Positions 6,647 to 10,390 of a DNA stretch of 41,590 nt are shown piece after piece. This DNA comes from a virus (lineage: Duplodnaviria; Heunggongvirae; Uroviricota; Caudoviricetes), in the IMG/VR virus record IMGVR_UViG_2585427774_000008, one strand, 5' to 3'. A program made the position numbers and the translations under genes. Below the pieces are notes generated by a model. The model saw only the letters and a program-made list of their open reading frames with translations, was not told where the DNA came from and made no database searches. Position 1 is the first letter of the stretch. Every line of letters starts with the position of its first letter.

Positions 6647-6853
6647 ATGGATCGTGACGAACTGGAAGAAGACCGCGCAGCGTTTATTGCGGGGGAGATT
6701 GGTGGCGCAGTTGTCAGTCTGATAGCTAACGGGATTGTGATCAGCCGCGATGCGATTGTGGATAGTCTAGAGGCTAAGCGCAGGGTAGTGGGAAACGTCA
6801 TTCACAAGTGGGTATTGCGGGATGCGGCTGCTATGGTGAGAAAAGGGCAATAA
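6647..6853 (+). CDS. Hypothetical small protein
   Basis: 68-aa ORF with GAGGGTGAG SD; followed by hairpin terminator. Confidence 0.45.
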   Translation: MDRDELEEDRAAFIAGEIGGAVVSLIANGIVISRDAIVDSLEAKRRVVGNVIHKWVLRDAAAMVRKGQ

Positions 6854-6889
6854 AAAACCCAGTTCGGTAACTGGGTTATTGCTTTATTC
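6850..6889. terminator. Bidirectional rho-independent terminator
   Basis: Hairpin aacccagt-tcggta-actgggtt (6856-6877); A-run upstream gives a U-tract on the minus strand, T-rich tract downstream on plus; sits between convergent genes. Confidence 0.55.
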
Positions 6890-7342
6890 AACAGATGATG
6901 GGGGGGTCGGTGCTTTCTTAAAGATCGACCACTGAGAAATGTAGGTCAGCAACCTTGAGCTTAACTCGAGTTCTTTTCGTAATATTTCGTCATAACGTTT
7001 TTTTGCTGCTTGCATGGTCGCATCACTAGCGTGATTGTCATCCATAATGATCTTTAGCCTTTTCTTTTCTCGGCTTGAGCATATTGTAAATAACAGACCT
7101 GTAAATGACATTCCACCAAAATCCTTTAACGTTTTGATTACAAAAAGAAGAATCAAAGACAGAAAAGGAACAGATCTGTAGGCCCAATCACGAAACTCAC
7201 CGTCAGGAAAGAAGATAGGAATAGCATCTGTAGCATAACCACATATGAGGGAGACAATTAGAAAAGGTAGTCCATTTTTAGCTACATTTTTAACGTTATC
7301 GTTAGCCATGATTTTTTCCCGAGAACGATTTCGAGTCAACAT
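6884..7342 (-). CDS. Small membrane protein (possible superinfection exclusion SieB-like)
   Basis: 152-aa ORF (141 aa from second ATG); hydrophobic segments LPFLIVSLICGY and VPFLSLILLFVI; located in immunity region downstream of repressor. Confidence 0.45.
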   Translation of the reverse strand: MLTRNRSREKIMANDNVKNVAKNGLPFLIVSLICGYATDAIPIFFPDGEFRDWAYRSVPFLSLILLFVIKTLKDFGGMSFTGLLFTICSSREKKRLKIIMDDNHASDATMQAAKKRYDEILRKELELSSRLLTYISQWSIFKKAPTPPSSVE

Positions 7343-7685
7343 GTAACTTTTGTGTTTTGACTACATAATACGCAAATCCAATCTTAACTAACCAATAAGC
7401 TACTGGTATGAGTGCTGCGTAAAGAGGGATATAGTACATAACCTTACCTCCTGTTAACCACACTATAACACCTAGCATCACTATTAGCGCGACAGAAAAT
7501 GCTTTCAGCCCAACACAGCTATCAGGATGTGAAACACTGTTCCTTAGCAACAATATCTTGGATTCATCAAGTGTGTAAGGAATATCGCCAACATGATTTT
7601 CGATTTTTGGGAAGGTCTCAAATACTTCAACCCGATCAATCGAAATAATTGAGCTTGATTGATGATCTAAGCAAACTGCAGCCAC
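7302..7685 (-). CDS. Hypothetical protein with C-terminal transmembrane segment
   Basis: 127-aa ORF from GTG located 2 nt after upstream stop; an internal ATG at 7439 has a strong AGGAGG SD and would give a 45-aa membrane peptide. Confidence 0.4.
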   Translation of the reverse strand: MAAVCLDHQSSSIISIDRVEVFETFPKIENHVGDIPYTLDESKILLLRNSVSHPDSCVGLKAFSVALIVMLGVIVWLTGGKVMYYIPLYAALIPVAYWLVKIGFAYYVVKTQKLHVDSKSFSGKNHG

Positions 7686-7687
7686 TG

Positions 7688-8011
7688 TTATCCCTCTCGA
7701 ACCTTTAGTGATACTCGGTTAGCAGCAAATGTGGCAATGAAACCACATTCTACACATATAACAGGGAATGCCCATATACCTCGGCCAGCTGAATGAGGTA
7801 GAGGAAGGGTAATTATTGCAGGATAGTCTTGACTATCTTCTCGTGGAGGAACTCCCCAAAGCGTATGCTTACAAAGCGGACAGGCCATCTCGCCATGTTT
7901 TTCTTCGAGGCGTTGAAAATAATCTCCAAATTCTTGTCTTGATATTGATAGCGTCAATGCTGTTGTATTGACACTTTCCTGACTTTTTTCTTCTTCAACC
8001 TGTTCGCCCAT
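7688..8011 (-). CDS. Zinc-ribbon protein, hypothetical
   Basis: 107 aa from ATG at 8011 (track starts at TTG 8023); CPLCKH and CVECG motifs. Confidence 0.5.
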   Translation of the reverse strand: MGEQVEEEKSQESVNTTALTLSISRQEFGDYFQRLEEKHGEMACPLCKHTLWGVPPREDSQDYPAIITLPLPHSAGRGIWAFPVICVECGFIATFAANRVSLKVREG

Positions 8012-8122
8012 CTCAGCTCTCAATATAATGATAATTAACTGGTAAGTGAATTTTGCATATCGTTAAGATGTATCCCATTGGTACAGAAACATCTGAGGGG
8101 TAAGTAGCTTTTAACTACCGTG

Positions 8123-8518
8123 CTACTCACCATCCCCCTTAATCCGCCGTCCCATGTACTTGGCGTACAGTTCATCGAGTTCTTTCAACCGTAGAGATAC
8201 GATCCGCAACATGTTCTGTTGTTCTTCTTCGTTTGGGAGTTGATTATAGAGTTCCAACAGTCTCCGTTCGTCGTGTCTCAAACCGTCCTTAGCATCCACG
8301 TCCTGACCTAGAACCCACTCAAGACTTACGCCTAGCGCATCGGCAAGTTTTATTGCTGAGCTTTTTCCTATCGCTCCTCTGACAAACCAGTTGTTGACTG
8401 ATTGTGCGCTCACACCACAGATTCTCGCTATATCCGCTTTGGATATGCGCTTCTTCTCGATGATTTCATTTAACCGCCGAACCTGCGGGTTATCTGTTTG
8501 GTGTGTGTTTTTTCTCAT
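8123..8518 (-). CDS. HTH (XRE-family) prophage repressor, RacR/CI-like
   Basis: 131-aa ORF; HTH segment ISKADIARICGVSAQSVNNW; divergent from cro-like gene; no SD before ATG (likely leaderless); no S24 peptidase domain evident. Confidence 0.8.
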   Translation of the reverse strand: MRKNTHQTDNPQVRRLNEIIEKKRISKADIARICGVSAQSVNNWFVRGAIGKSSAIKLADALGVSLEWVLGQDVDAKDGLRHDERRLLELYNQLPNEEEQQNMLRIVSLRLKELDELYAKYMGRRIKGDGE

Positions 8519-8526
8519 ATATCAAG

Positions 8527-8594
8527 ATTCTAAACTAAAAGTTTATCGCCTCAACATTCATAATGTTGACTTTAATATAAACATAATGTTTAAT
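8527..8594. promoter_or_regulatory. OR region: divergent PR/PRM-like promoters with two operator palindromes
   Basis: Perfect palindromes TCAACATTCATAATGTTGA (8551-8569) and TAAACATAATGTTTA (8578-8592); plus strand -35 TTGACT (8566-8571) and -10 TTTAAT (8589-8594); minus strand -35 TTGAGG (plus 8549-8554) and -10 TAGAAT (plus 8527-8532) ending about 7 nt before the repressor ATG. Confidence 0.6.
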
Positions 8595-8621
8595 TTGGTT
8601 CGTTATTACTTGGAGCCAAAT

Positions 8622-8855
8622 ATGAAAGCACTTGATAAAGCAATATGCATCGTAGGGGGTGCAACCCGTTTAGCAGAAAAGCTCAATGTATCCCCAATGA
8701 CGGTCAGTCACTGGCGTCACCGTGACAATGGATTCGTACCGGCTAACCGTGTCATTCCTATTTTCAATGCTACAGGTGTAACTCCACATGAGTTACGCCC
8801 TGATTTGTACCTCAACCCTACGGATGGGTTACCAGCTCAGGAAGCGGGGGCATAA
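8622..8855 (+). CDS. Cro-like HTH regulator, YdaS family
   Basis: 77 aa from ATG at 8622 with GGAG SD (ORF track N-terminal extension rejected); MKALDKAI...GGATRLAEKLNVSPMTVSHW resembles YdaS/Cro-like proteins. Confidence 0.75.
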   Translation: MKALDKAICIVGGATRLAEKLNVSPMTVSHWRHRDNGFVPANRVIPIFNATGVTPHELRPDLYLNPTDGLPAQEAGA

Positions 8856-9397: not shown

Positions 9398-9481
9398 CGG
9401 GTTCAAATATGGCGAAAGCCGCGGTGCTCGAACACCAACGGCTTTCAGGTGCAAAAACTGAGCGTAATTGCGGAGAACAGT

Positions 9482-10390
9482 ATGTCAAATACCGCTGAAA
9501 TAATCAATTTCCCAAATAAAACCGAACAACCGGGAGGTCGTATGGCCGACCTGTCGAACGGGTATACCAAGGTCGCTAACGAGATCCAACAGCTTAAGCC
9601 TCGCCTGAGACTGTCAGGCCGGGAATGGCAATGTTTTGAGGCGGTGATCTGGCTTACCTACGGCTGGAACAAGAAACAGGACCGCGTGACAAATACGGTT
9701 ATTGCCGAGCTTACGGGCCTGAGCGATACGCATGTATCGGACGCGCTTAAGTCTCTCGCAGAACGCAAAATCATCTTTTCACAGAAGCAGGGCATGATGA
9801 AAATCGTCGGTGTAAACACTGACCTTTCAGCATGGATTTTAGACAAACCGGAAACGGGAAGAAAATTCCCGAAAACGGGAAAATCCTTCCCGAAATCAGG
9901 AATAACCTTCCCGAAAACGGTAGACACCCAATACAAGAACAAGAACAGTATTAAAAGATCTTCGTCCGAGAATTCTGACGAATCCTCTGACGCACGTCTG
10001 AAGAAATTTTTATCAACTCATCCTGAAGCTGCGGTCTACACACCATCCGGTGCGAAGTGGGGCTCTGCTGAAGACCTCGAGACAGCTAAGTGGATTTCCT
10101 CCAGGGTGAAGCTGATTAACCCAACCTGCAAAGCCCCGGACATGACCTCCTGGTCTAACACTGTTCGCCTGATGCGCCAGATAGACGACCGGTCGCACCA
10201 GGACATCTGCGCGCTGTATGACTGGGCTAGCAAACACCACTTCTGGCAGACCAACATCCTGAGTCCCGAAAGCCTGCGTAAGCAGTGGGACAAGCTGACA
10301 ATGCAGCGTAACGCCGGAGGTGAGCAGCGCGCTGTCAAGCCAGATCTGGACTTCAACAACACTGACTGGGCCTATGGGGTGATCCGATGA
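9482..10390 (+). CDS. Replication initiation protein, lambda O-like
   Basis: 302 aa from ATG at 9482 with GGAGA SD; N-terminal replisome-organiser-like region (LSGREWQCFEAVIWLTYGW...AELTGLSDTHVSDALKSL); contains iterons. Confidence 0.8.
   Translation: MSNTAEIINFPNKTEQPGGRMADLSNGYTKVANEIQQLKPRLRLSGREWQCFEAVIWLTYGWNKKQDRVTNTVIAELTGLSDTHVSDALKSLAERKIIFSQKQGMMKIVGVNTDLSAWILDKPETGRKFPKTGKSFPKSGITFPKTVDTQYKNKNSIKRSSSENSDESSDARLKKFLSTHPEAAVYTPSGAKWGSAEDLETAKWISSRVKLINPTCKAPDMTSWSNTVRLMRQIDDRSHQDICALYDWASKHHFWQTNILSPESLRKQWDKLTMQRNAGGEQRAVKPDLDFNNTDWAYGVIR
9846..9923 (+). repeat. Iterons (candidate replication origin) inside O-like gene
   Basis: Four direct repeats of (t/a)cccgaaa(a/t)c(g/a)gg starting at 9846, 9867, 9888, 9909 with exact 21-bp spacing, followed by A-rich tract; encodes FPKTG/FPKSG peptide repeats. 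Confidence 0.65.

Follow-up and report, generated by a model that had tools for sequence, protein, structure and literature searches.

In the 41,590-nt stretch of Caudoviricetes DNA held in IMG/VR as virus record IMGVR_UViG_2585427774_000008, here called the window, a cassette of three genes, designated A, B and C, lies on the minus strand. Gene B, the middle one, encodes a protein of 127 amino acids (aa) predicted to span the membrane with two transmembrane (TM) helices, and inside its open reading frame (ORF) a strong Shine–Dalgarno (SD) sequence precedes an in-frame ATG at position 7439. As judged from homologous sequences, this internal SD and ATG are conserved beyond what the encoded amino acids require. 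We regard it as fairly probable that the pair directs genuine internal initiation, which would yield an isoform carrying only the second helix (TM2) and would feed ribosomes to gene C; that such a peptide is stable and has a function is what we infer. The features concerned are as follows.

7685–7302, minus strand: gene B, full length, 127 aa with a GTG start; an ORF annotated by the Prokaryotic Genome Annotation Pipeline (PGAP) as WP_000741698.1, with which homologues align over the full length
7696–7692, minus strand: GAGGG, the SD of the full-length start, seen in the sequence within the last codons of gene A
7470–7462, minus strand: TGTTATAGT block, codons 72–75, conserved at the nucleotide level (suppressed synonymous change)
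7452–7446, minus strand: internal SD AGGAGGT, consisting of the third base of codon 78, GGA of Gly79 and GGT of Gly80
7445–7440, minus strand: AAGGTT, the 6-nt spacer between the internal SD and the ATG in the sequence
7439–7437, minus strand: in-frame internal ATG, Met83, an invariant column and the first residue of helix 2 in an AlphaFold2 (AF2) model
7439–7302, minus strand: predicted short product from translation, 45 aa, TM2 plus a basic tail (MYYIPLY...GKNHG)

The internal SD-ATG pair at 7439 is more than a chance match. Among the 1353 ATGs on both strands of the whole window, this ATG has the strongest SD/anti-SD duplex (-11.6 kcal/mol), and a duplex of -9.8 kcal/mol or stronger is found at only seven of them. 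The initial annotation of this DNA, in which the site was picked out, had described AGGAGGT separated by a 6-nt spacer from an ATG that shares the reading frame of the 127-aa ORF, and the sequence bears this out, including the exact 45-aa peptide that it quoted. Besides, in-frame internal initiation calls for an SD at 5–9 nt from an in-frame start within an ORF, and this is the arrangement found in gene B.

Conservation of the internal start among homologues

The comparison at the DNA level covers 19 non-redundant lineages (<95% identity), and that at the protein level an alignment of 25 sequences; homologous DNA was obtained from viral contigs, metagenomes and exact-protein look-ups, and scans of a species-representative genome collection found no relative. 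Twelve close relatives with 57–98% identity have lengths of 122–127 aa (127 aa in all but two) and come from E. coli, Klebsiella, Kluyvera and Cedecea. A more distant clade consists of 149–158-aa proteins with 24–41% identity.

Met83 occupies one of only 10 invariant columns among the 25 proteins, whose identity goes down to 24%. No other start codon in the gene has as good an SD as the internal ATG in 18 of the 19 lineages; the duplex energies range from -9.8 to -11.6 kcal/mol at the internal site versus -4.0 to -11.9 kcal/mol at the 5′ start. The codons that make up the SD are biased accordingly in composition: in the lineages having Gly79, its codon is GGA in 14, GGG in three and GGY in none, and the Gly80 codon is GGT in 17 and GGG in two of the 19 lineages. 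Glycine codons within the cassette as a whole are used at 24% (GGC), 21% (GGG), 31% (GGT) and 24% (GGA).

Third-base changes counted by the Fitch method on one neighbour-joining tree amount to two at Gly79 and one at Gly80. At control four-fold codons of the same gene, the counts are nine (Ala2), five (Pro26), eight (Gly33), seven (Pro87), five (Ala91), seven (Pro94) and eight (Ala105). The spacer codons 81 and 82, next to the SD, have accumulated nine and seven changes, respectively. Thus, with 7–9 changes in the adjacent spacer and 5–9 at the controls, the region is not a mutational cold spot. By our own arithmetic, with a Poisson mean of 7, the joint probability of two or fewer changes at one SD site and one or none at the other is about 2e-4.

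Constraint is also visible where the protein sequence itself varies. Immediately before GGAGG, 16 of the 19 sequences have an A, and the codon that it ends encodes eight different residues. In two lineages, L031 and L039, Gly-Gly is replaced with Glu-Gly, and GGAGG is still present, as gtG GAG GGT or atG GAG GGT. When the seven upstream codons were reshuffled synonymously, the observed SD strength was reached in 2–6% of trials per sequence in the close clade. The proportion of synonymous differences (pS) is 0.50 in codons 56–82 versus 0.66–0.72 elsewhere in gene B, and in a sliding window codon identity is raised over codons 71–83. The overlap with gene C at the 3′ end of gene B, where codon identity is raised as well, provides a positive control. 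A separate, small peak of codon identity lies over the His-Pro-Asp codons at 52–56 (7532–7518, minus strand), with GAT in 14 of 14 sequences.

Structures in the RNA that could regulate the internal start were searched for around it and not found: the RNAalifold consensus energy is -0.66 kcal/mol and the single-sequence z-score is +0.41. The local 40-nt folding energies around the start are average for gene B. With average local folding and no conserved structure, nothing is predicted to hide the internal SD.

The full-length protein and its two helices

The comparison likewise indicates that the 127-aa protein of gene B is real at full length. The 82 codons upstream of Met83 are open in all of the 19 lineages, down to 26% identity, and the N-terminal region contains the invariant residues Met1-Ala2 and Glu29-Asn30 and a near-invariant Gly33. 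For residues 2–55, the proportion of nonsynonymous differences (pN) is 0.31 and pS is 0.72, giving a pN/pS of 0.43 (these are proportional differences, and pS is saturated). Even stronger conservation is observed in the TM2 segment, the most conserved part of the protein, with a pN/pS of 0.19. The 5′ start codon varies among GTG, TTG and ATG, and in all homologues a G-rich SD is located within the end of gene A.

The initial annotation had noted that GTG 7685 starts 2 nt after the TAA (7690–7688) of the upstream ORF, as the sequence confirms; its further statement that this GTG lacks an SD is incorrect, as GAGGG lies 6 nt 5′ of the GTG with a duplex energy of -6.3 kcal/mol and has equivalents in 19 of 19 homologues. 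It had also left open whether ATG 7439 is the true start or gives an internal-start product. If ATG 7439 were the true and only start, the 82 upstream codons would be a mis-annotated untranslated leader. Its SD is indeed much stronger than that at GTG 7685, and two public gene calls (P0026 and P0013) took the internal ATG. However, the purifying selection, the open frame and the conserved N-terminus described above indicate that ATG 7439 is not the sole start; the SD of the 5′ start is, moreover, conserved and coupled to the stop of gene A, and the P0026 locus has an intact ORF of 125 aa. We find this explanation hardly credible. The second option, an internal-start product, is favoured on comparative grounds: the ATG is invariant, and the nucleotides of the SD have been retained amid neighbouring synonymous sites that have changed. 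Homologues that keep the N-terminus and lack the internal SD had been named as the finding that would speak against such a product; they do keep the N-terminus, but the SD, far from being absent, is conserved too.

The two gene calls were inspected as candidates in their own right. P0026 (43 aa; L040 3001–3132) was rejected as a free-standing short peptide, and P0013, which begins at the internal ATG, is a gene call fused to gene C by a frameshift and was not counted as evidence. Given the intact ORF at the P0026 locus, the calls at the internal ATG are regarded as gene-caller artefacts. Gene callers have thus chosen the internal ATG twice: for gene-finding software, the internal RBS (ribosome-binding site) outscores the real 5′ start.

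The gene B product is predicted to be an inner-membrane hairpin of two helices. It is composed of an acidic N-terminal tail (residues 1–55), TM1 (56–77), a TGGK turn, TM2 (82–111) and a basic C-terminal tail. In the AF2 model, built with the 25-sequence alignment, helices 56–77 and 82–111 have a predicted local distance difference test score (pLDDT) of 82–89, and the first 55 residues are of low confidence; the mean pLDDT is about 63 for gene B and for gene C alike, both being modelled as simple helices. The net charges of the tails, -4 for the N-tail and +3 for the C-tail, fit a hairpin with both termini inside the cell and a four-residue outer turn, TGGK. Because Met83 opens helix 2 right after this turn, the short product would be a clean structural unit, exactly TM2 plus the tail.

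Two other sequence matches of gene B were set aside. A match to Pfam DUF7156 (E 0.0019, below the family cut-off) is attributed to chance similarity of TM segments, as it was obtained with one of 25 family members. Residues 3–52 (7679–7530, minus strand) give phmmer matches to 7–9 tandem SEA-like repeats of eukaryotic mucin-type proteins; these matches, P0023 and P0028 (E 2.5e-7 and 8.5e-5), were judged to be sums of weak repeat matches rather than homology.

Proposed second initiation and alternative explanations

Gene B and gene C are closely linked in translation terms. The ATG of gene C lies over the stop of gene B in a ATGGCTAA overlap, and across all 19 lineages the distance from the gene B stop to the gene C start ranges from -11 to +1 nt. 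The SD of gene C is weak, -4.3 kcal/mol in the window and -2.8 to -7.3 kcal/mol across lineages, typically -4.2 kcal/mol. Probably, the internal site sets the output of gene C relative to that of gene A. A dependence of function on subunit ratio is described for RexAB (PMC12894663).

In the mechanism that we propose, the strong and maintained RBS (AGGAGGT, 6 nt, ATG at codon 83) would direct a second in-frame initiation within gene B. The resulting 45-aa isoform would lack TM1 and the N-tail, and its N-terminus would be placed outside and its C-terminus inside the cell. On reaching the ATGGCTAA overlap, ribosomes that started at codon 83 would terminate there and start anew on gene C, and the internal site would raise the output of the short form and gene C relative to gene A and the long form. 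By analogy with SieB/Esc, holin/antiholin and RexA/RexB, the short form might co-assemble with the long form and/or the gene C product via the shared TM2, and might thereby adjust or hold back a module that acts on the membrane in superinfection exclusion or abortive infection. In a more extreme version, which we hold to be improbable, the 45-aa TM2-only peptide would itself be the membrane-active effector or trigger of an undescribed three-gene exclusion or abortive-infection system, a holin-like or type-I-toxin-like peptide hidden in-frame within a tethered, inactive long form; the internal RBS, perhaps with an extended -10 promoter, would set its output, and the long-to-short ratio would determine whether the lysogen stays quiet or its membrane collapses upon infection.

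Several points weigh against internal initiation and its proposed role. Access to the internal site may be blocked by ribosomes already translating from the 5′ start. The demands of the protein could be enough to preserve Gly-Gly in a tight turn and a Met where a helix begins, and any GGN-GGN pair is by its nature similar to an SD. Equal SD strength is reached in 37–42% of the synonymous shuffles in three distant sequences, L011, L012 and L039, because the amino acids there force a G-run. The TGTTATAGT block is conserved nearby, so that the constraint on the SD might belong to a larger element. The homologues are related to one another and their counts are not independent, a problem which the comparison with control sites reduces but does not remove. 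And the status of A-B-C as a candidate superinfection-exclusion or abortive-infection module is one that we infer from its slot and architecture only.

Some of these points can be combined into an explanation in which only the full-length protein is made: AGGAGGT would be a by-product of a structural Gly-Gly turn and codon inertia, and Met83 would be kept for helix packing. The AF2 model, which places Gly79, Gly80 and Met83 where the turn leads into helix 2, agrees with it, as do the SD-like nature of glycine codon pairs, the shuffles in the three distant sequences and the clear selection on the full-length ORF. It leaves unexplained, however, why GGY never occurs at codon 79 though GGC and GGT make up 55% of the glycine codons in the cassette, why the A before GGAGG is retained in a codon that encodes eight different residues and GGAGG survives the Gly-to-Glu replacement, and why the SD codons show 1–2 changes against 5–9 at controls and 7–9 in the spacer; we take it to be unlikely. 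The motif might instead cause a programmed elongation pause after TM1, aiding membrane targeting or insertion of the hairpin, with no initiation at all. The motif does come directly after TM1, and SD-like pause sites in membrane-protein genes were reportedly proposed by Li et al. in 2012 and by Fluman et al. in 2014. Yet a pause has no need for an invariant ATG at the optimal spacing of 5–8 nt, TM1 would still be within the exit tunnel when the motif is reached, and Mohammad et al., in 2016 and 2019, are said to have attributed SD-dependent pausing largely to a profiling artefact. A pause site is very unlikely in our estimation.

Two more explanations accept that the site is used or selected, and place its purpose elsewhere. 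Supposing that initiation does occur, the internal RBS could be real but owe its selection solely to the ribosomes that it supplies for re-initiation on gene C, in which case the 45-aa peptide is a tolerated by-product that does nothing by itself. The weak SD of gene C and its start overlapping or abutting the gene B stop in 19 lineages speak for this, and a strong RBS 135 nt upstream on the same mRNA would lift gene C independently of gene A. On the other hand, a better SD right before gene C would be a simpler solution, and the tail of gene B is conserved poorly enough to permit one; the short product matches a helix boundary and the most conserved segment exactly; and in the clade with 150–158-aa proteins, the internal product is about 75 aa, so that ribosomes would have to cover a much greater distance to gene C. 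On the supposition that initiation occurs, we give this account a modest probability. Finally, the TGTTATAGT block resembles an extended -10 element 15 nt 5′ of the internal SD, and an internal promoter there could produce a separate transcript, starting just before the SD with a very short leader, that encodes the short form and gene C, a counterpart to the transcript of rexB alone that lambda makes from pLIT. Synonymous change is suppressed in the block (Fitch counts of 2 and 1), ATA is the codon in 13 of 14 sequences, and TATAGT keeps its T where Val73 is replaced with Thr or Ala. But a -35 element is missing, and the block is absent from L022, L029 and L045 and weak in L031 and L039, all five of which keep the SD and the ATG. 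Since the consensus promoter scan did not list the block, the internal promoter is held with low confidence, as a rather improbable alternative to the second initiation in gene B that we prefer.

The cassette, its slot and comparison with known systems

The window corresponds to a Rac-like lambdoid prophage, with genes for RecE, YdaE, Kil and a RacR/CI-like helix-turn-helix (HTH) repressor on the minus strand, and YdaS/YdaT-like and O/P replication genes on the plus strand. The features around gene B are listed below.

8518–8123, minus strand: prophage repressor, RacR/CI-like HTH, 131 aa (Pfam HTH_3 and Phage_CI_repr; phrog_8; PGAP ‘helix-turn-helix domain-containing protein’)
8011–7688, minus strand: gene A, a 107-aa soluble protein with CPLC...CxxCG, a putative zinc ribbon (PGAP; phrog_4293)
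7309–6884, minus strand: gene C, a 141-aa helical membrane protein (PGAP WP_001262533.1; all-helical in AF2, pLDDT 63)
6877–6856, minus strand: intrinsic terminator, hairpin and T-run, bidirectional, ending the cassette (terminator/promoter scan, sequence)

Genes A and B are separated by 2 nt. Gene A (106–111 aa), gene B and gene C (140–151 aa) co-occur in 19 of 19 lineages, and in every one the cassette lies directly 3′ of the prophage repressor on the same strand, the repressor being of the RacR-like or the CI/S24 type. From this position in the repressor operon, the cassette is probably expressed in the lysogen. It is rare: five of 5426 complete E. coli genomes contain it, as does a single isolated phage, PHB10, in which all three genes are annotated as hypothetical. 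No functional family for genes A, B and C was found in Pfam, PHROGs, PADLOC or NCBIfam; gene A matches only phrog_4293 (E 7e-7), whose function is unassigned, and has no sequence relative in the PDB. A literature search by accession and topic found no paper on the cassette.

The slot downstream of the repressor, which holds rexAB in lambda and bstA in BTP1, has been described (Owen et al., bioRxiv 10.1101/2020.07.13.199331) as a hotspot of mosaic diversity. In E. coli 23CRST046 (L002 3079–3941), and also in strain ES8, the same flanks enclose a different two-gene insert encoding hypothetical proteins of 136 and 149 aa. A different insert between the same flanks, the Kil/YdaE side and the RacR-like repressor, indicates that the slot is a site for exchangeable cargo. 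On the other side of the cassette, a 68-aa plus-strand ORF (6647–6853; PGAP WP_000373341.1, hypothetical) converges on gene C, and the terminator at 6856–6877 is common to both. Elsewhere in the window, the longest ORF for a replication protein (9449–10390, plus strand) begins with GTG 9449 and has an inner ATG at 9542, 31 codons in, preceded by GGGAGGT with a duplex energy of -10.9 kcal/mol; this ATG may be the real start of that ORF.

If the internal start is used, each copy of the cassette contains a conserved small membrane protein that the present annotation overlooks. A further outcome of the analysis is a candidate exclusion system: the uncharacterised, mobile set of three genes that occupies the rexAB/bstA slot in prophages of Enterobacteriaceae. 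As to the approach, a comparison of synonymous sites can show whether a Gly-Gly codon pair merely looks like an SD or is an internal ribosome-binding site under selection.

Several known systems resemble parts of this arrangement. Type I toxins such as Hok, TisB and Ldr are tens of residues long and consist of a single hydrophobic helix followed by a charged tail. The predicted 45-aa peptide is similar to them in size and layout, but is embedded in-frame in a larger conserved protein. Control by antisense RNA, by which type I toxin–antitoxin systems are recognised, was not detected: the consensus scan listed no plus-strand promoter-like site in 6700–8700, no Rfam family was matched in the window, and a conserved structure was likewise lacking.

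RexA/RexB and A-B-C share the slot directly 3′ of the repressor on the same strand, and both pair a soluble component with membrane components (in the cassette, the putative zinc-ribbon protein A with the membrane proteins B and C). Such an architecture would be compatible with a soluble sensor and a membrane effector that together cause abortive infection. In lambda, rexB alone is transcribed from pLIT inside rexA, and pLIT parallels a device that raises the downstream products relative to gene A. The cassette differs from RexAB in having three genes instead of two, and gene A encodes a 107-aa putative zinc-ribbon protein, not a RexA-like DNA clamp; homology of A, B or C to RexA/RexB was not found in Pfam, PADLOC or PHROGs.

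The S gene of lambda has two in-frame starts, giving holin and antiholin (S105/S107), whose N-terminal helices differ in topology and whose ratio sets the activity. The two starts of S are 2 codons apart, whereas those of gene B are 82 codons apart and the second would remove a whole TM helix and the N-terminal tail. In addition, gene B belongs to the repressor operon, flanked by the repressor and the kil/recE region, rather than to a lysis cassette with an endolysin alongside; it has no PHROG match to holins.

A parallel in mechanism is offered by SieB/Esc of P22 and lambda. According to a review (PMC12197685, citing Ranade & Poteete 1993), one frame gives rise to a long product and an in-frame N-truncated product that modulates the long one, and P22 has the antisense RNA sas. 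An antisense promoter opposite gene B was not found by the consensus scan, and neither gene B nor gene C matched the SieB family at E <= 1 in Pfam, PHROGs or NCBIfam. The comparison with SieB/Esc made in the initial annotation is thus a fair analogy of mechanism, but it does not extend to a family assignment, a match to SieB, holin or Rex families being absent. Like gene B, SieB lies in the early/immunity region of a lambdoid phage; it is a membrane-associated exclusion gene expressed from the prophage, as gene B with its predicted truncated form may be. Unlike SieB, gene B is the middle of a translationally coupled three-gene cassette. The internal start of gene B would then represent a further, non-homologous example of a known device, placed within an uncharacterised cassette, and, if true, a clean second instance of the SieB/Esc logic in the same prophage neighbourhood.

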